DNA of 64,000 nt from Octopus sinensis (Eukaryota), in contig NC_043015.1 in NCBI RefSeq assembly GCF_006345805.1, positions 38,936,001 to 39,000,000 of the forward strand, read 5' to 3'. The notes under the pieces are model-generated. The model made no database searches. It worked only from the letters and a program-made list of their open reading frames with translations, and had not been told where the DNA came from. The position numbers and the translations under genes are program-made. Each line of letters starts with the position of its first letter. Within the stretch, counting starts at the first letter, position 1. Below are positions 4,447-46,393 of this stretch, piece after piece.

Positions 4447-4833
4447 ATATTGTTGTATTTCGGGATGGTCATTTTTTTGCCAAATAAACACACGCACTAT
4501 ATATTCGTTCTTCTCTGTTCGTATTCTAACTCATGTCGATTTTCCAGAAATCTTTCGTCACACATCTGTGACCTCTTCAGCGATACTTTCCGTCTCCGTG
4601 TGTGCTCTTGCTCCACTTATTTCTTGTAATAGAAGAACATAATAAAATAAGTAGAGCAAGAGCACACACGGTGACGGAAGGTGTCGCTGAAGAGGTCACA
4701 GATGTGTGACGAAAGATTTCCGAACAATGGACATGAGTTAGAATAAGAACAGTAATAAATGAGTGAGGAACGAATATACAGTGCGTGTGTTTATTTGGCG
4801 AAAAAAAATGACCGTCCCGAAATATCACAATAT
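4447..4833. mobile_element. Inverted-repeat element (about 180-bp arms) carrying a hammerhead in each arm; PLE inverted-pLTR-like
   Basis: 4447-4622 is a diverged reverse complement of 4645-4833. It abuts (TA)n. Confidence 0.8.
4684..4723 (+). ncRNA. Minimal type-I hammerhead ribozyme motif (mirror copy on - strand at 4544-4583)
   Basis: tcg CTGAAGA g gtcaca-gatg-tgtgac GAAA gatt TC cga. Confidence 0.7.
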
Positions 4834-10387: not shown

Positions 10388-11125
10388 TAGATCTATAGGA
10401 TCGATTTCAACATATGAATTAGTAAATTCAATAGCTTTATCAAGCAGCGATCTAGATTTTATCAGGCATGCGAGGAAAGCATTTTTGTTCACTAATGGAT
10501 TAGCATGGGTAAAAACATCGCATAGTGATGAAGTATTTGATGTATCTATGGGGTCATATGATAGTGCTGTGATCTTGTGGGTTTACTTATATTAAACACA
10601 TTGAGGTATAGATACCTAGCTAATGACATTGGCCTATACCGTGAAGACGGTTTAGGTATTTCCCATGTGTGTAGTGGTCACAACCTTGGTAGATTTAGGA
10701 AGGAACTATTTCTCAACCTTTAATCAATTAGGACTTAAAATCACAATAACTACTAATCTCTGTATATTCCATCATTTAGATGTTTCCCTAGATTTAAACT
10801 CCTCCTCATGTAAACCTTTCCATAAGCCTAATGAGAAACTCGCATATATCCATAAACAGTCTTGTCACCCTCCTGAAGTATTTTAAAATCTGATAGCTAA
10901 TATTTGTAACAGACTGACTAACATCTCTTCCAAAGAAATTTTCGACAAAGCTGCCCCCTATTATAACAAGGCCCTAGCCAAATAGTGGCTTCGAAGATAA
11001 ATTAACATATAATCCCTCTATTAATCAAAATATTAATAATACGAGTAGATCTAGTGGCATCAACGATAAGGTAGTACTTAACCATCCTAATATTAATGAG
11101 GATAATAAGAAACCAAAAAATAGTC
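10388..11125 (+). pseudogene. Decayed Penelope-like reverse transcriptase fragment
   Basis: IRHARKAFLF..WVK..FDVSMGSYDSA, DIGLYREDGLG (YRDDG variant), LDVSLDL..KPFHKPN..YIHKQSCHPP and IFDKAAPYYNKAL..SGF. Frameshifted. Confidence 0.88.
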
Positions 11126-12822
11126 CTTGAAACCCAGGTTGTTGCAGTAACTGGTCCTGAAGCGTGATGGCATTGCTGGGATCTTTGGCACTATCCAGTG
11201 TTATCCCGTTCTGGCATTGGTATAGCTTACAATGCCAAATTTTGGCACAATTCCTTCCAAGATCTTCCAGATATATATTACTGCATACCTCTCCCGTCTT
11301 CTCTCCAGGGAGTAGAGTCTTAACTGTTTCAACCTTTCCCAGTAGCTGAGCTGTTGCAAAGAGACGATCTTCTTTGTGAATCTTCTCTGGATTGCTTCAA
11401 GGTTCGCTGTTAATTTCACATTGGTGGGTGACCATAGCTGTGAGCAGTAATCCAGGCGGCTGAGGACGAATGTCCGCCAGAGGACCATCATGGTTTCCTT
11501 ATCTCTGGTTCTGAATGTTCTAGGATCCATCCAGCCAGTCGTCTGCACTTTGTCGCCATCCTGGTAATGTGCACTTGGAAAGAGGTATCATCACTCACGT
11601 CGATACCCAGGTCCCTCACTGACTTAGGTTCTGGGATTAAAATTTCCTGTGGACCGGTGTACTCTGTAAGTTTCATATTCAGTTTTGGATGCTGGTAGCG
11701 CAGAGCTTGAAACTTTCAGCATTAACCTACATATTATTATCCTCAGCCTATCTGTAAATTGAGTCCAACTCTTGCTGCAGGTGTGCAACATCGCTGGGGT
11801 TCTGTATTTTCTGCGAGACTTTCGTATCATCTGCATACCTTTGCCAGAGTGGCTATCTGAGCATTTGAGGGCATATCTGAAAGGGCCACTATAAAAAGCA
11901 GTGGTCCCAAGACAGTGCCCTGTGGAACACCGCTCACTATTTGTGTGTTCATAGAGGTGGCTCCATTAGCCACTACTGCCTGACTCCTATCTTTCAGGAA
12001 GTCATGTAACCACTCTCCAAGTTTTCCAGCTATACCAAGGTCACGCAGTTTGTGGCATATCATACCATGATCCACCTTGTCAAAAGCTTTTGCAAAATCA
12101 AGGTATATTACGTCCACATTTGATTTGTTGAGTAACTGCCTCAACACCCAGTCATAATGTTGTAAGAGCTGGGTCAGGCAGCTCCTACCTGATCGAAAAC
12201 CACGCTGGGCATCACTCAGCAAGTTATTTTCTTCAAGGAATGCGATTAGTTTCCCCTCTGACTATCCGTTCCATGACTTTGCTGATGTGTGAAGTCAGAG
12301 AGATAGGCCTATACTTTTTGGCATCTGCTCTGTTCCCCCTTTATGCATTGGGTGTATTATTCCCTCCTTCAGCTTGCTTGGCAGTTTGCCATTTGTAAGA
12401 TAGCTCTGGAAGAGAATCTGGTGGAGTTTTGCCAGGGCATGCTTACATGATTTGAGGAAGATTGCTGGGAAACCATTAGGACCAGCAGTTGAGTTTGTGA
12501 CCACTTCACCTATGGCTAGTAGTATATCTTCTTCGCTAATGTCAATGTATTTCATTGTAACTGACCTCGCCGGATATAGGTGAAACGGCAAAGAAGTCCA
12601 CTGGTTCATTCACTTTTCTGGTCATTCAGTATCTCACTGATCTTAGTTGGACTGTCTGTGGCGGAGCCATCTTTTTGGAGGAGGAGTCCTATCTTGCAGT
12701 GTACTGAGGCAGTTTCTTTCGCGTAATGAAAGAAGGCCTTTGGGTTTGACTTAATGTTTTTTTATAACCCAGGCTTCTTTGTCTGCTTTCTCCCTCACAT
12801 AGGATTGTTGCACTTTTTTCCA
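11125..12822 (-). mobile_element. CR1/L2/Jockey-group LINE ORF2 fragment (RT), frameshifted
   Basis: [54 protein letters not shown], (Y)ADD, RDLGI, LDYCSQLWSP and YSLERRR, spread across ORFs 12295-12609, 11827-12222, 11488-11676 and 11201-11548. Confidence 0.92.
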
Positions 12823-25920: not shown

Positions 25921-26140
25921 TAGCGAATACAAACTACTGCACGTGTAAAGGGAGTTGATTTTCCGTTCTACACTGAATGGTTACTGAAAAAAATCTGATG
26001 TTTTAAGTTGCTGTAGTGAGACTTTTAACTATAAAACCCCTTCACGGGAATTTACTCGCGTTTTAGTTTTTTTTTTTCCCCAGTGACGAGAAATAAAGAA
26101 AATTTGTGAATATTATTTATTGTTCTTTATGCGCCAAGCC

Positions 26141-26575
26141 TACAGGTGTCAGTGCCTCCATGTGCGTGGATACAGGCATCGGAGACACCATGTACAATAC
26201 CCACAGGCATCGGAGACTCCATGTGGTGTGCTCGCAAGCGTCAGAGACTCCATGTGCCATTCCCACAGGCATCGGAGACTCCATGTGCCATGCCCACAGG
26301 CATCGGAGAGTCCATGTGCCATGCTCACAGGCATTGGAGACTATGCGCTGTGCCCGAGAGCATCGGAGACTCCATGTACCGCGTCCACAGGCGTCAGAGA
26401 CTCCATATTCCGCGTCCACATGCGTCGGAGACTCCATGTGCCATGCCCACAGGCATCGGAGACTCCATGTGCCATACCCACAGGAATTGGAGACTATGCG
26501 CTGTGCTCGAAAGCGTCGGGGACTCCATATGCCGCGTCCACAGGCGTCAGAGACTCCATGTAACGTACCCACAGA
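26141..26575. repeat. GC-rich minisatellite, about 31-bp unit with a 153-bp higher-order period
   Basis: CACAGGCATCGGAGACTCCATGTGCCAT units at 26264, 26295 and 26326. Variant GGAGACTATGCGCTGTGC at 26336 and 26489. Confidence 0.9.
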
Positions 26576-27522: not shown

Positions 27523-27586
27523 GTGAGTTAAATATCGACATTTTCTTTTTTTATTTGCACATGACTGGTGTATAGTTCACCTCAAA

Positions 27587-27630
<44 letters not shown>

Positions 27631-29080
27631 AAGAAGAGGTGACTCATCCAAACAGATGAGGCATTAGGCGGTAGAAACACGAGTTGAGTGTTTACGTCTC
27701 CTATTGGCTTTAGGATGTTTCCGGTGTGGAAACTCGGTGACAATCTGAATGAAATATTTTTTGGAGATTATCTTTTTTGTTTAAAGCAATTGAATCCAGA
27801 GTTATGCACTGGCTTTAGGGATCCGCAAATGTTTTGGGTTAATATTAATCTTGTTCCCTGACTTATGTCAGGCCGTCGCCATGCTTGTAGCCAGCTAGAA
27901 ATATAAATAATCATACTTAACTGACCAGAACTACACCTACGACTGTAATATTTTATTCTAAATTAATAAACATATGTGTCTGTTACTAAGCAATTCATTG
28001 GGTCTCATTTATTCATTTCTAAAAATTGGTGTGAATGTCTACAAAAATCACGAGATAATCCATGGATTATCACAACTGTTGAGAAACCTTTAGAATATGT
28101 TTAACCTAGAAATAAAAGTTGAAAATCTGCATGATGGTTAAATATATTTTGAACAAATACAAAATTTGGATCTATAGATATACCGAAAGAATATGCAATG
28201 TTCAGGGTCCTTTTCTAAAATGTCGCCGATTCACAGAACAATCTTATTTTTCTGGTGAATGTCTACTAAATTCATCTTTGGCTCCTAATTGAAAATACAG
28301 CTATTGCAGTTCTTTACTGGAAATATATTCCTTGAATATCTCTCCATATCCTAGTAATATGTCTGCTAGTTTGAATGTCGCAAAGAATCAAAATCGATAG
28401 CACACATGATAGATTCTCCCATTTATTTTAACTCCTCAACGTCCAGTTTTTCGATCAATTCGACGATCTAGTCACTGAACTAAAGTGCTATGTGGCTGAG
28501 TACTCCAGAGACATGTAAGTTGTTAACGTAATTCTCAAATTGAGTCAGCGTGACACAGTCCGACGAGACTGAACTCTTCCATTAGGGTTACAGTCCGTCC
28601 GTCCCATGGTCTTCCGTACAGTCTCCCACTGACAAATGTCTCACTCAACTGGCAAAGAAGCTGCCAGGAAGTTGGGTTCACTCGTGACTTTGATAAAAAC
28701 TCTTGCCCAAGGTGTTAGGGTGCGCGCTCTAACCTAAGTCGTAAATGCTAATCCACACCAGCATCGATATGCTGGCGCGCGCGCGCATGTGTTTGTGTGT
28801 ATGTGTGTGTATGCGGAGATATTTTTCACGCCGAAACATTGTATCTGGTAGCCTTTGACGTCCCCTAGAGCTTGGTGTGTGCAAACACACGAAGTTTATT
28901 GAGATAAATATGTTCTTAGAGACAATATTCCTAAGCAAATGCACTATAGGTTCGAGATAAATTCTACTGGCACGGAAGTGCTGCCAGGGGGGTCAGTCCT
29001 AGACATGCGCAGAGTGACGAACCTACATTGCACCTATTATGTCCGAACCTTTGGGTTTCACAATCTCCTCCTCTTTCTCC

Positions 29081-29137
<57 letters not shown>

Positions 29138-29970
29138 CATTATTGAGTGAGAGAGTAGTGCATGCCATCAAAATGACACTGGGGTACAAATATACGAAGC
29201 CCGACTTACCCATCATGATTACCCGTTTGATAAGGCTGACTTCGTTCCAAGCTCAAATTCCACTGAGGCCAACTTTACCTTTTATCTCTCCGGTAAGATT
29301 AAGGACCAGTTATGTACAAGGGTCGATATCTATGACTGTTCCCTCTCTATGAAATTCATTGTGTTAAGGACGGATTATGGCAGAAACTGTAGAGTAACAG
29401 ACAAAATATTTCGCAGCGTTTAGTTAAGTTCCGAGTTCAAATCCCGCAATCGACTTTACAATTTCATCCTTCCGGAGTCGACAAAGTACCAATAATATAA
29501 TGAAATTATTTTAATCCATTGCATCCGTCTCTTAACTTTTAAGGTCTTCTATCCTTTATTTTTTTTTTCATTTTTGTCATCTTATACCGTAATAAGTCAT
29601 CGATCCTGTCCTTTCTGATATACCTGACACGACCAACCGATGACGATAATCGAACGCTTTTCAAAAATATTCGGTTTTACTTTGTCTTACTTAACACTCT
29701 AAATCTACATCACAACCAATATCTATCTGGAAACTCTAGAAATATATCTGTGAACATCCCTATTACTAAACATTACCCCCACCCCAACCCCATCATTTAT
29801 TAGCTGACTGTGTGTGTGTGTGTATGTGTATGTGTGTATGTGTGTGTGTGTGTGTGGTGGGGAGTATGAAACACCAACAACTTTGGAACCATTTTCACAC
29901 GGAGATTATTCTTCCTCAATCGTTGACCACATCACAATAATTCATCTCACGCACTCTATTAATCATAATT

Positions 29971-30016
<46 letters not shown>

Positions 30017-30638
30017 TGTTATCATTTTTATTTTTATTATCATTGTTATTGTTATTGTTGTTGTTGTTCTTCTTATTATTATTACCATTATCATCAGTGT
30101 GTTTATTTGTATCGCATATCATAATGACATATTATGAGTGGTTTATGGACAAAACCCGTAATCTCGGTATGAGTGTCATTTGCCAACTATTCGGGGTGTT
30201 GCTAATTGTTCGCCAGGAGCCCCAGGTGGCTGACTTTTCTAATTTTGATTTTTGGCATCGCTGCAGGAATAAAACGTAATTCTCTGGAAGACAGAGAAGA
30301 GAAAGAAAGCAATGATATTCAGAAGAAGAAGAAAAAACAAACAAACAAACAAAAAACCATTATGCCTGACGGTGACTACAGAAGCAGACTTTTAGCGAAA
30401 ACGGTTTTGTCTGGCGTAGGTTTTTGATTGCACACGTATTGTTCTTTCCTGACAAAGTATTCCTTTCTCTCATATTGTGACATGAAGAACTCTTTAGAAA
30501 AAACACCAATGATTTAAACCAATATATGTTCCACTTAGAGTTTCAGATTCTTAAGTTTTGATTACAATAATGGTTTTCTGGTTTGCTGGCACGAGTTACA
30601 GACCAGAGAACATGCGCTTATTGTAATTGTGGATACGC

Positions 30639-30989
30639 TTTTACTTGTTTCAGTCATTTGACTGCGGCCATTCTGGAGCACCGCCTTTTGTCGAACAAAT
30701 CGACCCCAGGACTTATTCTTTGTAAGCTCAGTACTTATTCTGTCGGTCTCTTTTGCCGAACCGCTAAGTTACGGGAACGTAAACACACCAGCATCAAGCG
30801 ATGTTGGGGGGACAAACACAGACATATATACGACGGGCTTCTTTCAGTTTCCGTCTACCAAATCCACTCACAAGGCTTTGGTCGGCCCGAGGCTATAGTA
30901 GAAGGCACTTGCCCAAGGTGCCACGCAGTGGGACTGAACCCGGAACCATGCGGTTCGTAAGCAAGATACTTACCACACAGCCACTCCTG
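30639..30989 (-). mobile_element. SINE family B
   Basis: Colinear with the other copies. Confidence 0.85.
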
Positions 30990-31831
30990 TCAACTTTCGA
31001 GGAAAAACCAAGCGAGGCAACTACGCAGAGATTCGATCGCAGAACCTAAAGCACTGAATACTTTTATGTATCTAATCAGGTTTCTATTCTCTTCTCGAGG
31101 CACAAGGCCCGAAATTTTTGGAGAGGGGGGAGCAGTTGATTAGATCGATCCCAGTACGCAACTGGTACTTAATTTATCGACCCCGAAAGGATGAAAGGCA
31201 AAGTCGACCTCGGTTGAATTTGAACTCTTTAAGGCGGGTAGCTGCCGGAATCGTTATCGCACCAGCAAAAATGCTTAGCGCCATTTCTTTTCCGACTTTG
31301 CGTTCTGAGTTCAAATACTGCCGAGGTCGACTTCGCTTTTCATCCTTTCGGGGTCGATAAATTAAGTACCAGTTGATGTAATCGATTTATCCATTCCCCC
31401 TAAATTGCTGGCCTTGTGCAAAAAATTTGAATCCAAAATAATAATGATTTCCAGGCGCAAGACCACATATATTTTGGATGAGAGGTACAACCTATGAGAT
31501 GGAACCAGTTCTTTACTGGTACTTCTTGCCCCTGGATGGTTGAAAGGGTTGACTGAAGTGGGATTTGAACATTGAACACAGAGGTACATAATATTTCAAT
31601 GTATTTTCCCGCTGCTTTGGCTTTCTCATATCAGCACAACGCTGAGTTATATAATCAGCTGAAGCGACTCCATTATATAACTGGTATCTGTCTTATACAA
31701 AGTCAGCTTTAATTTCGTCCAACATTACTGCTTCTATCATTCCCCACTTTTGAAGTTGTTCTTGTTGTACAGTAACAGTTCCAGCCAAATTGATCTGATC
31801 TTTGATTTATGTGTGTATTGATACGGTTTTG

Positions 31832-32160
31832 TGGAGAGGCATTGGGTCAGTGGACTCGCGGTTTCGATTCCCAGACCGAGCGTTGTGAGTGTTTATTGAG
31901 CAAAAACACCTAAAGCTCCACGAAGATCCGGCAGGAGGTGGTGGCGAACCCTGTTGTACTCTTTCACCACAACTTTCTCTCACTCTTTCTTCCTGTTTCT
32001 GTTGTACCTGTATTTCAAAAGGGCCAGCCTTGTCACATTCTGTCATGCTGAAATTCCCTGAAAACTACGTGTTTTCGGGTAGATTTCGGGGAGTTCACGT
32101 GTAGGCTGTTCCATCGATCGGATCAACTGGAACCCTTGTCATCGTAACCGACGGAGTGCC
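31832..32160 (+). mobile_element. SINE family A
   Basis: Colinear with 8684-9060. Confidence 0.8.
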
Positions 32161-33412
32161 AAGATAAGGTTTATTCATTCTAAATTCAATTAGTTCGCCA
32201 TGAAACTAAACAGATTTGCAATTGTCTTCCACCCACAAGATGATGGCAAATGGCGATATATCCTTCATGGGAAGATATTTCAAGTCGGATGATATCTGAT
32301 ATGGCGACATCAATATTTCAGGTAAATAGCATTCTAAGTCGGCGATGTATGCATACATATATATGCGCACGTGCACATACACACACGTATGCCTATATAT
32401 ATATATGTGTGTGTGTGTGTCTCCCTAAGCATGAGTGTGTGTACATATGTATGTATATATGTACGTATGTGTGTTTGTATATATATATATATATATATTG
32501 ATGAACAAACCAAATTTGTTTCTCCATTTTCTTATTTGTATTATAAATTTACGGTAAAACTATTTCTTTACCTTCACCCGTTTAATACAATAAATGAGTT
32601 AATTGCATTGCAATTAAAAACATTTATGTATTAAGAATCTGGGTACTTTACCAACAGTATATTGGATAAATGATATCCCATAGTGGGTTACACCCATAAC
32701 CCCTATCTTACTTTGTGTGTGTGTGTATGTATATATATATATATATATATTTGAATGGATTCCTTTATAATATCCAGTATACTCCGATCAGATTGCTGTT
32801 ACCGGTAATCTTTGAATGCTTTTCAAAGACCATCTTAAATCTATCATGGTTTTATTGTTACCATGGAAATAATTATATGTAATAGTTTGGTTGTCTTAAA
32901 CATCAACTTTACATCACCAATAACAACAACAATCATATCACCGACCTTTTTTTTTCTTTATTTTGTTTTATTTTTTCTTCTTTTCCACGTATTTTTAAGA
33001 ATACGAGAAGGAAAATTACCGTTGCGAAATAGTTAAATCGCTGAAACAGTGAAAACAAACAACAGAAGTCAATCATGTTGATTTTACAGGTGTTCAATAA
33101 TCTAACGTTCGATAATGTAATGTTTAGTTGTTCTATGAAGATATTCCTCTCATTGTCTTCAGACATGGCGAATGGTATGGACGTAGGAAAGATGCTGAAA
33201 TATTTTATCACGGGGAGAAAGCGTGGTGGGAGCCGGGGATTTAGAATAAACAGACCTTTGACAGGACTGACCACTCGATGCGGCAATAATAATAATTTTG
33301 AAACAAAATTCTTGATAGAAACAGAATCTTTGAAATTGTAAGTAAATAATAATCAGATTGTAAAGAAAACGATGATGTGTGGATGTTTGTGTGCATGCAT
33401 TACACACACACA

Positions 33413-33463
<51 letters not shown>

Positions 33464-34654
33464 CGCGTATACAAACGCACACATGTGTCTACCTGACACG
33501 ATTCTATTTGTCCACGGCAAATGGAAACTCACCGATTGTATAATTCCAAAATAACATTCACCAGACACGTGGCTAAGGATTTTAGAAAAGTTTGTTTATT
33601 CTTTGTATATTCTTAGCAGAAATGGGAAAACAAGAAAAGCTTGGTATTTTGTTTGTATCGACACATTCTGATTTCAAATCCCGCCCAAAATCTACTCCGT
33701 TTCTCATCTTTCCAGGGTTGACAAAGTAACAGTCAAATACTGGAATCAATATAGCAAACACACACAAAAAAAACAAAAACAAACCAACAAAAAACAATTA
33801 TACCTCCCCTTATTTCTACCGAAGTCCAAGCTTTGTGTCATAATGCAGGAGAAACAAAACGATACCGGATTAGATGACAGTGCCGGATTAGATGACAGTG
33901 CTGGATTAAACTCCTCCCTGTGTTAGATTTCTTATATTTTGAATTTAAATCCTTTGGAATTGATTTTGTTTTTCATTTCCGTAATCGAAGAAATACTAGT
34001 TCAATCAATCAATCAAACTCTCTTCCTTTACAACTAGAACCCTCCTCCTTTACAGCTATTAACCACCCCTATTCTAGGACTATAAACCCCTCCTCTACAA
34101 CCCCAATCCCCTTTTCTGCTCCCAGTTAGTACCCACAAAAAAAGATTAAAATACTTGTTTCGTTACCAGGATGAAAGCGAAGGAGAAACAGACGACTTGC
34201 TTCGTTTCGCCCTTTTGTCCTGTTTCCTTTTTATCATCTTTCGGTGAGGAAGAGGAGTCGGACCATAAACGCTGCAAACTGGTCGAATTCCTCGAGGAAA
34301 AAAAGGTTTTATAACATGGGGCCATTTCCACAAATTAGGGGCTGGAGACTGAACTGTCGGATGGAATCGATTAAGTTGGCCAGTTTATTACTGCTAACTT
34401 CTTTTTATGGATTCCACAAAAAAAAAAAATAATAAATAAATAAAGTTAACTTCTTGGGGATTTGAATTTACTGCTTTGCCGGGTGAGGATGATTCTTTTA
34501 AGTCTATAAGAAACGACAAAAACCAATAACGACAATACAGAATGCAACACACACACACACAAAGGTAGATATCATCTGTAGATGAAATTAAAACAAGCTT
34601 TCTAATGACTAAGTTAGGCCTGACAAACTTCATGCCTTCTATCCATAAGGTAAA

Positions 34655-35047
34655 TCTTTATATATAAAGCTGAAGTTGTCTGTGTGTGGCAGGTTTGGTA
34701 GGCTTCAACTAACACTATCTCCTCCGAGACCCTGCGGCGCAAGTTGACCAGAATTGAGAGTATTATAGAAGAAGGCTTGCTCTTCATTCCATAAAAGAAA
34801 AAATTCAAATCGAACCATATTAACACCAAAAATTATTTGCATCAAAAAGGTGCTTTATTTCTATGAAAATCCCTATTTTTTTTACGATTTTTTTTATTAC
34901 TGTGTCGCTATTTTTCGGTGTATTTCAACCAGAAACATGTCCACTTAAAGAAAATAACAAGCTACATAATGCAAAATTTTTACTTTTCAAAAATTCCAAT
35001 TCTAAAGGGTCGAAACAAACCCGAGCAACGCCGGGCGATACTGCTAG
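34655..35047 (+). mobile_element. Non-autonomous Helitron, 393 bp
   Basis: A|TC 5' end, subterminal hairpin CCCGAGCAACGCCGGG, CTAG|T 3' end. Second copy at 52273-52665. Confidence 0.85.
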
Positions 35048-36460
35048 TATTTAATAAAGTCATGTTTCAGCTTCTCTTAGCCTTAACAATGCCTCATGCT
35101 TGTCATTGGGTGTACGTTTTAAATATCATATTTAATATCGAAGACGTGTTTCGTTGAGCCTACAGAGTGTCTACTTTAAGGTTAATTGGATAAATATTCT
35201 TTTCAATTTAGCAGGCAACTAAACATGCTGGAAAACTCGAGAGCAATTGTAAATGTTATTATCTGAAAGTGATAAGTAATTATCAATTTTGCAATTAGTG
35301 ATTTCATCGCCGCAGCTGTGGCTTTCATATAAGAAAAAAAAAGAAGAGAAAAACGACATCTCGTTTTTGGTGAGTGGAAACTTTGAATAAGCAGGTGTGG
35401 AAGAGGATGGGAGAATTTAGTGGAATTAGAGGAGAACATGTGATCTAGTTGATGCCAGTCGTAGACAACAGAACGCCGCTATAGAAGCAGAGCGTACTTG
35501 AAATGGCACCACAAAAGGAGGAATTACATTGAAGAGAATAATAAACGAGAAAATGTAATAGTGAAATAGAAAGGAAAGTTGGAAATGGTGGATGTGGTTT
35601 ATTAGATGCTAGGAAGCCTAACAAGTTGCACAGTCGGAGTATTGTGGAGAAGTTGATTGAGAGAGCGAATGAAATCCAGTGCCAATTATATAATTTGGAG
35701 TGGTTTAAGCGACAATAATAACTCTTCTGTCCCTTACACATACCAGCAAAATGGTGCTGGAAATTGCAACAAATTCTAAGAATAAACGATGGTAAAATAA
35801 TTAATATATGTGAGATTGCACCTGAGAGTAAATTAAGAAATAAGAAAATATTGAATCAAGAAAATTAAAATAGTTTCTCAGAAGTTATTTAAGGGTTTCA
35901 ATTATCTTTGGAATTAAATGGAAATACTTCAGAATATTATAAATTTAAGATGGGCAGTGAGCTGGTAGAATGGTCAGCACGCCAGGCATCATGCTTAGCA
36001 GCATTTAGTCCGTCTTTACGTTCTGAGTTCAAATTCCACCGAAGTCGACTTTGCTTTTCATCCTTTTGGGGTTGATTAAATACGTACCAGTTTAGCACTG
36101 GGGTAGATGTAACAGACTTACACTTACGCGCTTCTCTGAAATTACTGGCTTTGTGCCAAAATTTGAAACCATTATTATTAATCTAATACTGTTCCTAGAA
36201 TATTTTAATGAAACAGTTACGCTGATATCTTTAAAGCATTCCTAAATATTGTTGTTTAACCCCAGTTCGTCTCTGATTGGACAAACCTATATTAAAGGCG
36301 TTCTAGGCATGACCATTTTCTTTTTTCTTATGTAGTTATAATGTATCTGATATTACATTAGGCAACGTGTTCTCCCGTTTTTAAAACAGTAGGGTATGAT
36401 TCAAGCGAGATGCAGTTGATATTTCCAGCAAGTCGAACAACAGTGTGTGGTGTGTGTGTG

Positions 36461-36512
<52 letters not shown>

Positions 36513-36529
36513 AATATATATATAATATA

Positions 36530-36590
<61 letters not shown>

Positions 36591-36599
36591 ATATAAATA

Positions 36600-36653
<54 letters not shown>

Positions 36654-36658
36654 ATAAA

Positions 36659-37320
36659 TATAAAATATTATTCGAGACAAAACCACTATTTTGCAAAACA
36701 AACAAGGAAAGACTTAATCAATACATAAATTTTAATAAATAGTCAAAAAAACCGCCACTACAATCGTTTCTTGTCTTGATCGACAATCTTCAGGTGGACT
36801 TCCAATAATGGTTTCAAATTTTGGCACAAAGCCAGTAATTTCAGAGAAGCGCGTAAGTGTAAGTCTGTTACATCTACCCCAGTGCTAAACTGGTACGTAT
36901 TTAATCAACCCCAAAAGGATGAAAAGCAAAGTCGACTTCGGTGGAATTTGAACTCAGAACGTAAAGACGGACTAAATGCTGCTAAGCATGATGCCTGGCG
37001 TGCTGACCATTCTACCAGCTCACTGCCCATCTTAAATTTATAATATTCTGAAGTATTTCCATTTAATTCCAAAGATAATTTGACACTGAATTATTGGAAG
37101 TCCACCTGAAGATTGTCGATCAAGACAAGAAACGATTGTAGTGGCGGTTTTTTTGACTATTTATTAAAATTTATGTATTGATTAAGTCTTTCCTTGTTTG
37201 TTTTGAAAAATAGTGGTTTTGTCTCGAATAATATTTTATAATATTTTACTATAAAATCGATTTAATCCTAAATCTGATTTTTTCCCTGTAAATTTGGATT
37301 TATTCCCTAATATTTATTAT
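36659..37320 (+). mobile_element. Young PLE-type non-autonomous insertion in (TA)n: inverted arm, captured host DNA, direct arm with 3' tail
   Basis: Arms 36659-36809 and 37090-37240 are reverse complements (151 bp, one mismatch seen). The direct arm continues about 80 nt further. The spacer 36804-37080 is the reverse complement of 35900-36176. (TA)n lies on both sides. Confidence 0.85.
37102..37144 (+). ncRNA. Intact minimal type-I hammerhead ribozyme (mirror copy on - strand at 36755-36797)
   Basis: ccac CTGAAGA ttgtc-gatcaa-gacaa GAAA C gatt GTA gtgg. Predicted cleavage after A37140. ACGAUUGU is self-complementary with G-U pairs. Confidence 0.82.
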
Positions 37321-37389
<69 letters not shown>

Positions 37390-37432
37390 ATATATATATT
37401 ATATATATATATATTATATATATATAATATAT

Positions 37433-37732
37433 GGGGGCGCAATGGTCCAGTGGTTAGGGCAGCGGACTCGCGGTTGTAGGATAGCGGTTTCGATTCCTAG
37501 ACCGGGTGTTGTGAATGTTTATTGAGCGAAAACACCTAAAGCTCCACGAGGCTCCGGCAGGGGGTGGTGGCGATCCCTGGTGTACTCTTTCGCCACAACT
37601 TTCTCTCACTCTTTCTTCTGTTGGCCTGCTCGCTTAGCCAGCGGGGTGGCGTCATTTGAAGGCTAAAACAATACGAAGCGCATTGTGACCAGCGATGTGT
37701 AGCAACATCTGATAGCCTGATCGGTCACGGTG

Positions 37733-37733
<1 letters not shown>
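37433..37733 (+). mobile_element. SINE family A in (TA)n
   Basis: A/B boxes and shared body. Confidence 0.85.
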
Positions 37734-37780
<47 letters not shown>

Positions 37781-37885
37781 TTGTTATATGGCTACAGTGA
37801 CTACCACAACGGCTTTAATTTCAACAGAATCAACAATCAAATCATTTGCCGTGCAAGTTCAACACAAAAATATAGCGCACACACA

Positions 37886-37916
<31 letters not shown>

Positions 37917-38199
37917 CGTTTCTTTTGCTGCTATAGTCGTCTTTGTCCTTCGGTTCTGACTAACCTCGTGTCATCTCCATCGTGGACCGTCCGACACAAA
38001 TCGCCTCGTATCCCCTCATCACCCACATTGCCTCCCCATAGCTGACCCTTAATCACTCTTCTAAATTCTTCTTCCTTCGGACTGTCCACTCTCTGAAATA
38101 GGTGCCCTGTCCTTAGCTTTTCCTGCAGCTGTCGACTGCTGGTGTTTCAGAGGGAATTTGGACAGAACACTCGACTGACCAGTTGATGGACCCTCGGCT

Positions 38200-38285
<86 letters not shown>

Positions 38286-41200
38286 GACTCAATGCAGCTG
38301 TGAATTGTTTCCTGCGATAGATTGGTGTCGAGTTCAGAGAATGATTTATCTTTCATTTGACGCGACCGAATACGGAGCAAGGCAGCGTTCGTTGGAGATT
38401 TTGTGGTTTCTGAAGACACCATTACCACTTCGCCAGGATTTATATTTTCACAGTGCACTGAATAGGTGAGAAATATTGTTTTACAGGACGCTCCTTACGC
38501 CATATCTACTTGGGAAAAATAAGCTATTAATTTGCTAACAGAACCCAACAAATAAATAAAATTTCTCGTCGATGAGAATGCGGGGCTGGCAGCGTTCTGA
38601 ATAGATTCAACACTGAACAAATATTTGACTACTCAGATGGGATGTCACAATAATTATTGAATCTCCGTTGAACAAGATTCAATTACACTGATTAATTAGC
38701 CATTCTCTAGATCAAATATAGTCAATTGATGCAATCAAACGAAAGCAATAATAGCGACACAGGTTTTGTGTGTCTAGTAAATAAGGAACACCGGATGTGC
38801 TCCAAGTCGGCCTATTGACAATATATTAGCTCTAGCGTTCTATGTCAACGTGTTATTAAAAAAAATCAAACTTTCCTTTAATGCATGAAGTAAACTGAAT
38901 AAGATGGCTGACGGGGGAAATGTAAAGATGGCGTCAGACGCCAGGATAATGATCGATGCTTTAACATTTGGTAGCTTTAGAAATGGACAATTGTCAGTAT
39001 TTATTTTCCTTTCCTATTTAATAAACTTCAAATAGTGTCCGCCATTTCAGAAAATATTCTAGATTTTTCACAAAGACCCAGGAAATGTTTTAAAATGAAA
39101 CTGTTGATTAAATTCAATCTTACATATGCGCTGAAATTAATTTACGATTAACAGTTTTCTTTCTTTTTTTTCCACAAGAAAATACAAAAAAACAAAGAAA
39201 CCTAAATATTGACAAATATGGTTGTTGTTGCTCTGCTTCACAATGGCGACTACGAAGGTAGCTCTAACGTGTCTATAAACATACAGAAAGTGAAAACTTA
39301 GTTTTGATTAACCAAGGGATGACGGCCTCGCCGATTACCCACATCGCAATGTGTGTGTGTGGGGGGAGTAAATATGTTTGGTGTAATAGGTCTGGGGTAA
39401 CGTTTTTGTATTAGAAAACTCCCATAGAGTCACTATATGCCATAGCTTTTCGATTTACTGTTATCAATATTAATGTCGATATGTTGGCTGTTGAGCAATC
39501 ACATCAACCGCAATCTACACACAAGCAGACATACTCAATGTTGCCAGGGGGCCGAATATATAAAAAAATTTTTTTTGTTTAAATTTAGCAAATTTTTGTG
39601 CAGTTCTTGTATTATATTTGCATATAAATTCTTTATTGCAATACAGGTAAATTTCTAAAGTTGTTTTTTTTTTGTAGGCTTGTTTGTGTGATACCTTTGT
39701 GACTGTGTTCTTTCACTTGAGCAGACTGCAATAGCAATCGGGTCGAGTGAAGGAAATTTTGCCAAAACTAGATTAATCAAGAAACGTTTTACTTGTTCCA
39801 GAAGCATCGAGGATCACTATCGTACCCGAGTGAAATGTCAGAGGTAGCTTGATCCGTGTATTTCTTTTTATCTGGAACCAAGACAAGTTCCTTTTGGTAG
39901 ACATACTGTTCTAGTTGTTGGATGTCATAGCTGGCTGCCTGAAGAATCTCTCGACTAAAAATTGTGGCTGCACTTCGTACTGTCACCGATAGTCCACATT
40001 ATACAAGATCTTTGCCAGCCATGATCTACATAGTACTTCCAATGAGGATCAGGCCTTGGTTGCACGGGGAAGAAGTTAAATTTTAGGTGTGTGTGTGTGT
40101 GTTTTCATCTTGTGTTTGATGCAATCATATTGTCTTGGTGATTATTTCAAAGTTGTTGAGGATTCGGTGGTGAACGGACGCAGAAAGTAAAAGTAAAGAG
40201 GCTCGTAATCTTGTTTGGAGGATGCACTCTTCCAGTCAGTACCAAATTCCGTGAGGCACCTTGACTGGCAAACTTCGCGAAATATTGTACAAATATAGCA
40301 AAGAACTGTTTTCAAGTATCTGAATGAGGCTGGACCGAGAATTTGAGCGAGAATTATATGCAATTTAAACAGGTTATTAAAATTCCTCGTCTAAAAATCA
40401 AATTCCTCTACTGTAACGGGGATACGGGGACGTTTAAGAAACCACCACCACAAAATATGGTTTCAGAGGCAAGTAAAGAAGGAAGAAGAGGAGAGTGTAG
40501 CGAAAGATGTAATCATCTAAATTTCACGTTGTTTCAAGTCAGAGAGAATCTATCAAATATGGAGCAATTATATTATTTATTACATCGTATTGATTAAAGA
40601 ATTTAATTAAGCTATGCTTATTAATCACTTAGCAAAATACAAAAAGTCAAATATCTAGGGACACGCTCTACAGGAAAGCCGAATGGTATAGCAGCTGTTA
40701 GTATAATATAAAAGAATTAAGAAGTGTTAATTAATTAGAATTCTATACGTTGTGAGAAAGCCAAGTGATTATGCTAATGCATGCCTTAATTTTCCTCTGA
40801 CAGCGAATAATAAAAACGCTTTGCTGTAGAGGTTTGATAACACCGAAACATTTCCAGAGTTATCTCTCTTTAGTTCAAAGCCAAGATTCAATCATCAAAC
40901 CTAATGATTCTTTCCCCTCACTCCAGGTGGAATTTTAATCAATTAATCTGTGTAGACTCATTACATCTGTAAACCAGCCTCAAGGCAATTCACAGCAGTG
41001 TCATGGACGAGCAATCACAAGGACTCTTCGCTTTATTAAAAACTTCACATTTTTTTCACCTAATACTTACACACATAGATATATGTATGTATGTATATAT
41101 GCACACAGATACACACAATTATACACACATATACATACATACACACACATAGATAGGTGTATATATATATATACACACACACGCACGCACATAGATAAAC

Positions 41201-41666
41201 GCACATTTACTTATATATATATATATATATATATACGTACGCAGGTACATAAACGCAGCTATATACGCAGACATGTATACATATATACACAAATATATAT
41301 ATATAATATATATATATATATATAATATATATATATATATATACACATACATGTATACTTACACAAATATATGTATGTATGTATATATATATATATATAT
41401 ACACTCACACACACGCACACACATTTTATACACACACACATAAAAAGACCCCTTCTGTTATGAATGACCATGGGATTGCACCTGAAAAGTTACCCTCCGA
41501 GGCACAAATCTGGGCAGGGTTGTTCATGGAAGACCAGCAGTTGCCCATGCATACCAGCCTCCCCTCTCCACATCACCGATGTTATCCTAGGGAAAGGCAC
41601 GCACATATGCATACTCACACACACGTACACAAACATACACGTAAATATATATATATATACACATAC

Positions 41667-41742
<76 letters not shown>

Positions 41743-42689
41743 GCATACATACACACACATATATAAACATATATAGGTACACATATATTCATACATATGC
41801 ACATATACGCATACATATACACATATATACTCACATACATATACACACACTTGTATACACAATTGAGAAGAGATGTTGTATACAAAAATGGTCGTGAAGA
41901 AATCAGAAAAAAGTTGAAACTGTAATCACTATTGTTGCTTACGACAGCTGTTTATGTATCACAGTCTGCAAGTGACACAGAAGCCTCCACAAGGCCACTC
42001 ATTTAGCTAGAAGTAACAATCGTATTTTCCTCAAATCTCACCCTACCATCTTATTAAACGAAACCCCCGATTTAAACCTCAGCTATAACCGTGTTGGACT
42101 TCTTAAGTAATATATGTTACAATACAGACTAATACAGCATTGTAAATTTACTTATGAAACCATTGCTTGCTTGTGACAGTTATATATATTATTAATGAAG
42201 AGAGATGGCAGTACAAAGTCGATTAATGCTGCAATAATTAAAATTTAATACAGCCAGAAGAGATTCGGTAATTTAGTCAGAACGGCAAAGAGCTATAAAT
42301 AATCCTTATTGATTGTCCAGAGTTTAGAGGGAAGTTCCTCTTGAATTCTTTCCTTCCAGTGGCTGGGCTGACATTGACCATAAATTTGTTGAAATACTCG
42401 GACGTTTGCTCAAGGCATTCCGAAGCTTATCACAGGTTTTTGTCACATTCCGGAAAACCCGATTTTTTTCCTTCCGTGCCAGAACTTCGTTCCGCAACTG
42501 AAACAGATGCGATAAGGTATCTTATCAAATGGATCAATACTTAATCGAACCTGAATGAATGAAAGCAAAGTTGACCTTGGTGCGATTTGAAGTTATAGAT
42601 TTGAGGGCCGGGGCAGATACCGTAAAGTATCCGACCTGATGTTCGAAGGGCTCGGCCAGTCCGAAGACTATCCTTAGAGATGCACATGA

Positions 42690-43030
42690 AGAATGTTTGA
42701 AGGATCTTGGGAATAGGAAGTTCGCTAGCGGTCCCCAGCCGCAAGAATTCATCTACGGGGCAATTACCCTAGCCCCCATTCAGGATTGGCGGGGGCGATG
42801 TTGTGGACAACGGGAAACCTGGCTGGTGACAGTCGGGGCTGATCTGGAACCCAACCTAGCCCGCCCCCATGTCTACGGCGTTCGCCGCTGGAATAGGGAG
42901 TGGTTGGAGATCACGCGGTCGTTAGCCTCAGATCGCCAGGCCTGGTCGGCGTTTGTGAGAGATGCACCATTAAGGATGAATGAAGCCAGTTCAACCCACC
43001 CCGGGTGAATGCTGCACAAGTAAGTAAGTA
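42690..43030 (+). mobile_element. RTE-type LINE 3' end with (TAAG)n tail
   Basis: GQRETW..DL..YGVRRWNREW..LASDRQAW, then AAGTAAGTAAGTAA. Confidence 0.7.
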
Positions 43031-43583
43031 ATCCTTAGAGAGGAAATATAAAAATTTCACTTATGGCATCTTACCTATGGCATCTTATGAAATCAACTAT
43101 TAATTCTTCTTATTACATTGTTCTTTAACTGTAGATTACATGGCCTTGTCTCCGATATGTCAATGCACGTGACACTTAAGTGGGACCACCATAAATAAGG
43201 AGAACTCTCCAACGAAGGGTTTCAACCATAACTTTAATCCATCTTTAATCCAATAAAGCGCCATATTGTCTCATTCAATGATCCAAGAATGGATACGCTT
43301 CATTAGGGATTTGCCTTTGATTTTCTGGTTGTTGTTTAACCCTAGGTCAGCTCAGAATAGACAGATCTACGATCATAAATCAGTATATTTATGGCCATAC
43401 CGTTTGCTTGGACAATATTCACCAACATTATTGGTAACTTAAAATCGAACTTGATTTCAGCTGCTGTACGATGGCGATAAATGATGTCAGGTGGGGAATT
43501 AATAATTTCCTCGCAAATATAGCACTATCTGCCGTACTTTATTTATAAATACAGATATATTTAGCTATTTGCACCTTATGCGT

Positions 43584-43878
43584 GGAGGTACATGGCCTAG
43601 TGGTTAGAGCAGCGGACTCGCGGTCGAGGGATCGCGGGTTCGAATCTCAGACCGGGCGATGTGTGTGTTTATGAGCGAAAAACCTAAACTCCACGCGCCT
43701 TCCGGCAGAAGGTAATGGTGAACTTCTGCTGAGTCTTTCACTACAACTTTCTCTCATTCTTTCCTCCTGCATCTTACAGCTCACCTGCGACGGACCCGCG
43801 TCCCGTCCAGGTGGGGAACCTATACGCCAAGGAAACCAGGAAACCGGCCCTATGAGCCAGGCATGGCTCGAGAAGGAA
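43584..43878 (+). mobile_element. SINE family A relative (third tail type)
   Basis: TGGCCTAGTGG...GGTTCGAATC head and shared core; different 3' part. Confidence 0.8.
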
Positions 43879-44585
43879 ATTTGCACCTCATTCTCTCCCA
43901 ACCATCTCTTTGTTTTTCTACCTTTACTTCCTCAGTTGTTCCTCCTCCCCACCACCATCATTCTTACATTCCCCTTGATACCCTGTCCTTTGAGTTGAAC
44001 ATCAAATTATAACCCCAGTGAAGTTTGTTTTTGAGAAACAGTAAAATCTGGTCCAGAGATCAACACCACAACATTTATTGCATAACAATTTTGATTAACA
44101 ATAGTAAAAAAAAAAAACGTTTCTTCTTTCTTCAAACATTTTTGAGGAAAAAGCCTCAACTAGTAACAACTCGGTGGAACAAAGTTCAGCCCAAAATAGG
44201 ATAAATATGTTAGTGAAACAAATAAAAGGGTTAAAACTGAACTAAAATATAACAGAAAAATTACCTTATTGCAATCGGTTTGGAGGTGAGCAGGTCAGGT
44301 TAGGGTACAACAAGCAGGGTCGAAATCGGAAACTCGAGCAACACAGCCAAACAGTCTGAGCTGGGTTTTCTGAATCGTACAAGTAACAGGATACATCCCG
44401 GGTTCTGAGCAGAGTCGTTGGTTGGTCACGAAACCCGACCATGACGGGGCGTAGCTGCAGAGCAAAAGAATGAAGAGGAATGGTATATAAATGGGTATTT
44501 TCCTGAATAGAATCCAATATTGAGACAGGGATGTCAGTTCCGTGGTAATTTCGTAACTCTGAGACTGGTTACTGTAAAATGGTAG

Positions 44586-44848
44586 GGTACTAGTAGCGTA
44601 GACTGGACCCGGTTTGCGCACACGCGCAGACGCGTGTCCGCGCTAGCCAGACGTAGGCAGTCGATCCTACGAGCTGACTGGCGCATGCACGATATATACT
44701 TGTATCGATATATACTTGTATATATCGAATACAAGTATATATCGTGCATGCGCCAGTTAGCCCGTAGGATCGACTGCCTACGTCTGGCTAGCGCGGACAC
44801 GCGTCTGCGCGTGTGCGCAAACCGGGTCCAGTCTACGCTACTAGTACC
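44586..44848. mobile_element. 263-bp hairpin MITE, Mutator/MULE-like
   Basis: Near-perfect palindrome GGTACTAGTAGCG...CGCTACTAGTACC, flanked by a perfect 9-bp direct repeat AAATGGTAG (44577-44585 and 44849-44857). Confidence 0.88.
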
Positions 44849-45482
44849 AAATGGTAGTCTGTGAGAGATTCCAAAGGGTAAAGTAATCCATTTTTTGAAA
44901 ATAATAAACTTTTGATGGGCTACAATTGTCAGTAAGGGTCATGAGCAATGTTGGAAGTCTATTGCCAATCGCCCTGCCTTCGAAATAATTTCGCACTGCG
45001 AGTAGAAAGGAAATCGAGCAAACTTGTTTAACAAAATTGTTTTATTTTTAAAGAAGTTCGTACCATGCGAGGAAAAGGGTGGCAGACTGCTTCAAGCTTT
45101 CTTCTCAATGTAGCTTTTAGTTTTATGCAAATTATTATCTGCCTAAATTACGTATGACCGTTGAATTACGTTCGTGTGAGTCATGGGTTCGAATCCCACA
45201 AATAACAATTTATCTTTCGGATGATACATTAATTCCCGTTACATTAGACTGTAAATAATAAAATAAAATATTTTCATTATTATTGCCAACACTAATTAAT
45301 AAGGCTTCTGACTGATTGATGAAACAAGTGGAAAAAAAAAACACTTGTGAACTGTTAATAGCTCAGAAAACATCTTTTGTATTGGATTGCTGCAGAAAGC
45401 TTTCTGCTAAAAGAATAGAATTTGATTTTATGAATATGTTGAGGATCGAGATGGAATTAAAGCTGAGTTGATGCACGCACTC

Positions 45483-46061
45483 ACATATACATACATACAT
45501 ACATACATACATACATACATACATACACACATACATACATACACACATGCATACACACATACATACATACATACATACATACATGCATACCCACATACAT
45601 ACACACATACATACATACATACACACATACATACATACATACAACATACATACATACATACATACATACAACACACATACATACATACATACATACATAC
45701 ATACATACATACATGCATACCCACATACATACACACATACATACATACATACACACATGCATACACACATACATACATACATACATACATACATGCATAC
45801 ACACATACTTACACACATACATACACACATACATACATACATACATACATACATACATACACACATGCATACACACATACATACATACATACATACATAC
45901 ATACATACATACATACATACATACATACATACATACATACATACGTACATACAAAAACACCCTGTTGATGTTGAAATTCCAGTGAAGGAGCCTTGGACCT
46001 AGGCTAGAAACCGACTCTTTCTCTATTGGCAAGAAATTTTGAAATGAAAATGAATAATGAC
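45483..46061 (+). mobile_element. Second 3' UTR copy of the same element: (TACA)n plus terminus
   Basis: 45959-46061 is the reverse complement of 17836-17940. Confidence 0.65.
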
Positions 46062-46393
46062 ACACACACACACACAACACAGAATGAAAACGTGAAATTC
46101 TCTGTTTATCCAGCCATATTTTTTTATAAAGTAGAACATATTTCTCCAGCATCATCTCTTTTGGTGCAAAGCCAGAGAGAGAAAGGTTGCTACCCAAGGA
46201 GATACTTGTATTCCGTCGCTCATCAACCAAATATATTCTACATACATTAAAATGGTGTATATATATGTATAATGCAGAGGATTTCTCTGCCGTTGCAATG
46301 AAGTCTATGGTTCTTTACAGAACAGTGTTCGCTAGTTTCTCATATATTTTTTTATATTCTAATTTATATTTCTTGTTCTTTTTCTTTGTTCAG

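Follow-up and report, generated by a model that had tools for sequence, protein, structure and literature searches.

In a 64,000-nt stretch of the Octopus sinensis genome (hereafter the window), the spliced 5' end of a PLE (Penelope-like element, a retrotransposon) lies within (TA)n as two head-to-head arms, and between them sits an inverted 265-bp copy of neighbouring host DNA that was probably made while two cDNA ends were being joined, a reading to which a probability of about 0.65 can be attached. The locus combines a spliced junction with a 6-nt microhomology at both junctions of the copy, and the same architecture recurs in the family to which the element belongs.

The structure is flanked by a left (TA)n array (36461..36662, no strand) and a right one (37310..37432, no strand), both part of the microsatellite target, and other copies of the PLE family are likewise flanked by (TA)n. 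The left, tail-less arm (36659..36809, minus strand) corresponds to the 5' end of the PLE RNA, bears a hammerhead motif on the minus strand and stops at the family's inner fixed 3' boundary, which is found again in other family copies; at its inner end it is short of ~20 nt. The right arm starts with a remnant of the element's short exon 1 (37075..37092, plus strand), joined to exon 2 at 37092/37093, continues with the exon 2 portion that matches the tail-less arm (37093..37244, plus strand) and ends with a tail of ~76 nt (37245..37320, plus strand) that is present on this arm only. Nine nucleotides (37081-37089) that an earlier interpretation of the letters alone, here called the sequence-only reading, had regarded as a linker are in reality the element's own exon 1. 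Its description of near-identical inverted arms between TA arrays holds: 36659-36809 and 37090-37240 match at 150 of 151 positions, the sole mismatch being 36693/37206.

The captured host DNA (36810..37074, minus strand) is an inverted copy of 35906-36170. It is framed on the left by AATAAT (36804..36809, plus strand), common to the arm end and to the template end at 36171-36176, and on the right by ATAATT (37075..37080, plus strand), common to the template end at 35900-35905 and to the element's exon 1. Only the former had been noticed at first, correctly for its own junction. Counted with both microhomologies, the copy spans 36804-37080 and equals 35900-36176 in reverse complement at every position (277/277), as had been proposed, and the identity stops at both edges. 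A non-palindromic spacer of 627 bp separates the template from its inverted copy. The template (35900..36176, plus strand) consists of ~50 bp of unique DNA followed by an old SINE copy at ~35951-36176, the ~50 bp at 35900-35950 lying beyond the SINE homology detected within the window. When the insert was searched against the genome, matches of 100% were returned only for itself and for the local template; among the 40 scored candidates of 6459, the runner-up reached 83% over 218 nt and no other match extended past query base 246 of 265. Because only the local sequence matches the insert at 100%, 35900-36176 was the template, and the earlier statement that this locus rather than another SINE copy had been copied is upheld.

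The nature of the element can be read from its longer copies. The ORF of the long copy L040 contains a PMG...YRDD core, an S.HP thumb, VYKC...YIGST and CC..C...H, which we take to be motifs of RT and of a GIY-YIG (EN) domain. A single ORF with RT plus GIY-YIG at the C terminus, as in EN+ PLEs, is seen in the long copy, the window copy being non-coding, and the nearest Atlas clusters (0.94-0.97) have HTH_animal, RVT_1 and GIY-YIG on 17-99% of their members. A Pfam search with seven frameshifted ORF pieces returned only Clathrin_H_link and SPMIP10, both below the cut-off, and these were dismissed as noise. Ahead of the GIY-YIG motif lies a Cys-rich linker, C.C....C.....C; a Cys-rich, Zn-finger-like linker between RT and EN characterizes Neptune (PMC3846280, PMC8557442, in part; sources so marked were available in part, and statements citing them extend to that part), although Nematis likewise has a linker finger (PMC8557442, in part). 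From its motifs the element reads as an EN+ PLE, and as one of Neptune type when judged by the linker alone. In the same ORF (L040:3070-4863), thumb and linker are separated by a long Asn-rich stretch, which resembles the N-rich inserts known from rotifer PLEs (PMC3846280, in part). The combination of direct partial-tandem and inverted copies typical of pLTRs is seen in L050, where direct repeats 5.7 kb apart flank a frameshifted ORF and are accompanied by an inverted arm, and in 576 head-to-head pairs. A non-LTR retrozyme, whose definition calls for tandem units arranged head to tail, every one of them bearing a type I hammerhead (bioRxiv 2026.07.22.740005, in part), was considered and rejected, the window copy being one head-to-head pair and not a series of head-to-tail hammerhead units.

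Long copies run from exon 1 through GTAAGT, an intron of ~1.3-1.9 kb and TTTTTTAG into exon 2 with the hammerhead. GTAAGT is found in 13/13 unspliced exon-1 copies, and the family holds both retained and spliced copies, as expected of a spliceosomal intron. Because exon 1 abuts exon 2 at 37092/37093, the window copy came via a spliced sense RNA. The commonest young copy comprises the spliced 5' end only. Full-length short copies all end at one base, inside TCACTTC, which presumably resembles an initiator. An Inr-like TCACT has been described in a rotifer pLTR (PMC3846280, in part). Both arm boundaries are located upstream of the in-frame ATG that comes first in L050. An extra cap-derived 5' base was also sought and a C was found in 16/34 full-length ends, but this candidate was abandoned, as the partner arm can supply the C.

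With regard to age, exact matches to the 39-nt hammerhead core number 1618 across the genome, and the family must be very young because its 40 best copies of arm plus tail are 99-100% identical, in agreement with the very recent event assumed from the letters. Homopolymer indels of the kind typical of long-read assembly occur among the copies. In one public sequencing run (X3), the depth of the arm contig (37100-37165) is ~1-8% of that in another (X1) at similar single-copy depth and with the template flank present; depth is not copy number, and the difference gives a hint that the burst is lineage-specific.

The hammerhead at the window locus is a type I motif of dimer type (37102..37144, plus strand) with a 2-bp helix III and a self-complementary loop. 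Its core comprises helix I (37102-05/37141-44), CUGAAGA (37106-12), a 5-bp helix II, GAAA and the 2-bp helix III, with a predicted cut after GUA at 37140. The motif announced by the sequence-only reading is present, but its designation as intact is not matched by the models: an Rfam scan of the window gave no match at gathering score, the MFE structure obtained on free folding of 37090-37160 is another fold (z -0.03), and the hammerhead-constrained monomer reaches -5.9 vs -7.5 kcal/mol for the MFE. Helix III and its loop self-pair at 8/8 positions, two of them G-U, with -5.8 kcal/mol, which is the behaviour of a dimer-type hammerhead as judged against PMC4209133 (in part). Because the motif is of dimer type and only one sense copy is found in the host transcript, self-cleavage at this locus appears unlikely. 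The insertion of PAc, an Anolis Poseidon PLE, is independent of hammerhead cleavage (PMC11167929). Type I hammerhead-like motifs form another head-to-head pair elsewhere in the window, at 4580 (minus) and 4687 (plus); this pair belongs to a different, more diverged family and is probably an older PLE insertion. At L002 and L020, hammerhead-like motifs of other families lie within 250 bp upstream of the arm, which suggests that PLEs share (TA)n targets.

The two-armed arrangement is general in the family. Searching the genome with the exact core yielded 576 head-to-head pairs, of which 488 have a centre of 0-55 bp and 88 a centre of 56-500 bp. Near-perfect 175-bp palindromes with centres of 0-4 nt are common in the family. 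The tail is on exactly one arm in 90/94 loci, the one-end tail known from PLEs; the PLE identity and the inverted arm lacking a tail that had been suggested are borne out. In 66/66 loci typed on both arms, the splice or subfamily form of one arm is also that of the other, vs ~0.30 by chance. The 32 apparent solos on C1 resolve into nine tail-less only, ten tailed only and 13 pairs; in six of these 13 pairs it is the tail-less arm that extends further 5', and in two (L143, L156) the arms do not overlap. A tail-less arm that can extend further 5' or fail to overlap is no fold-back copy of its tailed partner. Read most simply, these data have both cut ends in (TA)n priming RT on one RNA, at two fixed sites ~76 nt apart. 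Arm concordance could also result if each cell had a single source locus or if one arm converted the other, and arm truncations could post-date insertion through later deletions.

A lack of local capture elsewhere in the family had been named beforehand as something that would speak against the sequence-only reading, and the recurrence found answers that test. All 49 pairs with centres of 100-500 bp were fetched and sorted by script, giving 17 local copies (the window included), 18 element-only centres, five double elements and nine others. The 17 local copies measure 74-417 bp (median 218) and are 93-100% identical to their templates; nine are direct and eight inverted. Their source lies in the flank of the tail-less side in 11, in that of the tailed side in five and on no assigned side in one, at a distance from the arm end of -1 to 2443 bp (median 198), and within 500 bp in 14/17. 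Local capture occurs in at least 3% of pairs (17/576), a lower bound given the exact-match patterns, the 500-bp limit on centres and the flank lengths searched (10 kb with foreign inserts and, with the majority of element-only centres, 3-4 kb). As a control, 16 inserts were compared with 71 loci of 10 kb, and the own flank was best in 16/16, by a small margin for L095. At the 5' junctions of 11 spliced solos, where only ~0.3 would be expected, long local capture was not found.

The 32 junctions of the captured pieces comprise 16 with 2-6 nt of microhomology, one with 1 nt, four blunt, eight with extra bases and three unresolved. Plain centres have at least 2 nt of microhomology in 12/24 scorable cases vs a 16-21% baseline (17/41 rows being unscorable and two subtypes serving as reference), which lends weak support to end-joining. 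Flank-templated inserts and junction microhomology are found as in Pol theta-type repair, and the insert lengths are not the <25 bp of such repair. Particular loci add to this picture: L068, which did not pass the automatic filter and is classed among the nine others and outside the 17, has pieces of 55 and 29 bp, one from each flank; the insert of L076 is composed of iterated short repeats; and in L078 the capture folds back into the flank by way of the locus's own arm. In L068, L070, L072, L076, L094 and L100 the arms are near or at the RNA 5' end despite the capture (lengths 24-30 of 26-30). Shorter inserts are also present at some centres.

The nine pairs classed as other are L068, L075, L083, L089, L090, L091, L092, L097 and L099, and not all inserts at centres are local. 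The centre of L075 is a microsatellite, that of L092 contains part of a 535-bp tandem repeat family, and in L083, L089, L090 and L091 the same foreign sequence is found in both arms. In L089 (4883-5094) this sequence derives from a whole coding-like exon with AG and GT ends on another chromosome (L174, G000:C26:6976037-6976207), and an unspliced copy of the family lies 27 kb downstream of that exon on the same strand. L089 reads as a host exon spliced at its donor to the element's acceptor and then retroposed into both arms. The foreign piece of L083 (4745-5228) has a source on C10 that ends at a GTAAGT donor, and a search of the 35 kb downstream of this exon detected no element. Foreign 5' sequence on both arms is also seen in L090, L091 and L198, and the L090 type has been met at three loci or more. 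To judge from these sequences, RNA-borne capture exists in the family and, unlike the window insert, is splice-bounded, distant and present in both arms. Pieces of the element's intron are also present at some centres.

Kilobase-spaced inverted pairs on C1 were screened as possible large host captures, but 8/9 groups turned out to consist of duplications or of element copies of greater length, and group A was the one that contains non-element DNA: its 600-bp centre insert (L031:4681-5280), outside the 49, is made of two reordered pieces from G000:C28:757119-757772 on another chromosome, and a search within 10 kb of this source detected no element. The 535-bp tandem repeat family is itself abundant (L176, L177, e.g., G000:C1:135002842-135005226; 97-98% identical), and its arrays often open with a single inverted unit and show 26 nt that resemble the PLE 3' boundary. 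It is possibly a non-autonomous PLE passenger, and a hammerhead motif pattern search of the unit found none.

For the window locus, the following course of events is proposed. The element's GIY-YIG nuclease would cut both strands within (TA)n, and each 3' end would prime RT at one or the other of two fixed internal sites, ~76 nt apart, in a sense RNA common to both, the two priming sites giving one tailed and one tail-less arm. The resulting two cDNA 3' tails would be of identical sequence and unable simply to anneal, and would be handed to microhomology-mediated end-joining. The left cDNA 3' end (AATAAT) would fold back onto its own resected strand and pair with ATTATT at 36171-36176, a template that lies 481 bp beyond the arm end and that resection of ~900 nt would expose; it would then be extended by 271 nt to 35900, released and annealed via ATAATT to the right cDNA 3' end. 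In the family, inverted captures would represent fold-backs on the same end and direct captures priming on the opposite end, and every side and orientation seen is compatible with priming on one of two 3' overhangs. The sequence-only reading had supposed a template switch of the nascent strand; the local template stands, but with microhomology at both junctions the joining of two separate cDNA ends reads better. A host polymerase of Pol theta type, one acting in SDSA or the element's RT may have carried out the extension. Like the steps above, the capture during insertion and the use of DNA as template are inferred. Some points speak against the scheme. Templated insertions made by Pol theta are typically far shorter, usually <25 bp vs the 74-417 bp found here, so another polymerase may act; and some inserts are non-local, from another chromosome or the 535-bp tandem repeat family. 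The broader proposition, that one spliced sense RNA is read twice from both cut ends and that end-joining recurrently traps stretches of local DNA hundreds of bases long (at least 3% of the pairs), pieces of distant DNA and, via splicing to the element's acceptor, entire host exons, is held with slightly better than even confidence.

Among the other explanations, the one that deserves most consideration, though it is rather unlikely, is that an ordinary palindrome was inserted first and that a later break at its centre was repaired by end-joining with a templated insertion from the resected flank. The near-perfect 175-bp palindromes common in the family are hairpin-prone, the repair substrate would be identical to that at insertion, and the ~20 nt missing from the inner end of the window's left arm fit a break there. 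Against this, several captures lie between arms that reach or nearly reach the RNA 5' end (e.g., L068, L070), and non-local and element-intron pieces at centres would be expected of a junction formed in the presence of element nucleic acid; both points fall short of deciding the matter. It is clearly less probable that the RT, while copying the element's RNA, switched to the host pre-mRNA and then returned. The orientation agrees, since RNA of the plus-strand gene could template extension of the left cDNA, and the family does carry host RNA, as in the C26 exon present in both arms of L089. However, such RNA-borne captures are splice-bounded, distant and two-armed while that of the window is single, intronic and local, and RNA of an 18.9-kb intron would not favour captures from both flanks and in both orientations of which 14/17 lie within 500 bp of the arm end; the pre-mRNA that had been offered as a possible template is disfavoured on these grounds.

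Somewhat less credit still can be given to the formation of the second arm by self-priming or fold-back, as in the antisense-template model (PMC3846280, in part), with the host piece as a loop-out. Arms of the same type in 66/66 loci, the frequency of palindromic centres and the fold-back of L078 are in its favour, whereas the short copies, spliced with a sense-strand donor and acceptor, imply that the template was sense RNA, and tail-less arms occur alone, longer than their partners or without overlap (also in group H), the non-overlapping arms of L143 and L156 having already weakened the model. Least probable of all is an assembly artefact next to the TA repeats. Such an origin could be suspected from the long-read-type homopolymer indels and from the public contigs: in four of 24 public runs, 0/32 pieces shown on 36660-37312 bridge 36804 or 37080, and the single-copy contig of the template (936-991 bp) departs at 37080 into its own flank, unbranched, in 4/4 runs. 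Contigs lose rare joins to high-copy repeats, however, and cannot show absence; the structure is not a symmetric fold-back, given its 627-bp non-palindromic spacer; both junctions coincide with element-specific microhomologies; and 16 other loci have the same architecture with different distances and orientations. A 98-bp piece with a depth of 84.6 vs 56.8 for the single-copy contig in run X1 was considered as a sign of an extra dose and set aside, as depth gives no copy number and X3 is similarly inflated.

Several features of the element agree with EN+ PLEs of the Neptune clade (PMC8557442, PMC3846280, in part), namely the RT with C-terminal GIY-YIG, the Cys-rich linker, the hammerhead pLTR, the inverted 5'-truncated arm, the tail at one end and the (TA)n target, and, as in Penelope from D. 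virilis, the intron ends just 5' of hammerhead helix I (PMC4209133, in part). In contrast, the tail measures ~76 nt vs 30-40 nt in known PLEs (PMC8557442, in part), the most frequent young copy consists of nothing but the spliced 5' end, and there are centres with locally templated host DNA, which are absent from the available parts of the EN+ PLE descriptions (PMC8557442, PMC3846280, in part). Unrelated DNA between pLTRs has been reported in A. vaga, its source not being described there as local (PMC8557442, PMC3846280, in part). In vitro, PAc cuts and extends both strands of an AT-rich target, uses two internal RT start sites that define the tail and is predicted to be a dimer (PMC11167929). 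The two-ended priming proposed here fits this behaviour; the PAc work leaves the head-to-head junction unexplained (PMC11167929), and the genomic copies show both the junction and its inserts.

As in L1, both break ends would be primed on one RNA (bioRxiv 2024.08.27.596794, PMC11702581, in part), and the inversion junctions of L1 twin priming are closed by end-joining with microhomology (PMC11702581, in part). Twin priming in L1, however, involves mostly non-overlapping parts of the RNA and a poly(A) start, whereas here both arms usually correspond to the same 175 nt and start at two fixed sites (bioRxiv 2024.08.27.596794, PMC11702581, in part). Templated insertions of L1 amount to 22 cases, mostly <250 bp and typically within 15 bp of the site, compared with a median template distance of 198 bp, and up to 2.4 kb, in the present family (bioRxiv 2024.08.27.596794, in part). 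The flank-templated, microhomology-primed and in places patchwork or iterative inserts (L068, L076) resemble those of Pol theta end-joining, which are generally <25 bp vs 74-417 bp here (PMC12426944, in part).

The origin of the tandem and inverted repeats of PLEs has been stated to be open (PMC8557442, in part), and one published model invokes self-priming on an antisense template (PMC3846280, in part), with which the apparently spliced and independently primed arms are at odds. PLE inverted repeats and templated insertions are both known; within the literature covered, which leaves aside most subscription papers, older Penelope structure papers and supplements, neither their combination at family scale nor evidence for separate priming of the arms on a spliced sense RNA was found, nor any report of local templated capture or two-ended priming for PLEs. 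With more than 570 junctions in a very young family, PLE repeat formation becomes testable by counting, and recurrent local copying is itself a clue to PLE insertion. If true, the reading of one RNA twice would replace antisense self-priming, and the family would constitute a natural set of hundreds of integration junctions. The family also illustrates how a retroelement can make small local inverted or direct duplications and move host exons.

The host is a plus-strand gene encoding a homeodomain and an OAR domain, a pair from which we take it to be Arx/aristaless-like, and the whole structure is enclosed in one of its introns (27523..46393, plus strand, 18.9 kb). When 35880-37330 was folded as plus-strand RNA, template and insert formed 276 pairs and the arms stayed unpaired, since the one inverted repeat crosses the other. 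The host pre-mRNA is predicted to form a duplex of 277 bp, in keeping with the long dsRNA that had been anticipated in a developmental gene; an effect of the structure on the gene, however, is unsupported. A single locus is of little weight for the host, deep as it lies in an 18.9-kb intron of a window rich in oppositely oriented SINE copies. Other repeats of the window include broken RT-like frames at 11000-12600 (minus), presumably from a LINE-type element, and mirrored ORF pieces on both strands at 44534-44938, which suggest a long inverted repeat near 44590-44860. A 31-bp minisatellite of ~14 copies (26117-26574) is situated in the first intron of the homeobox gene.
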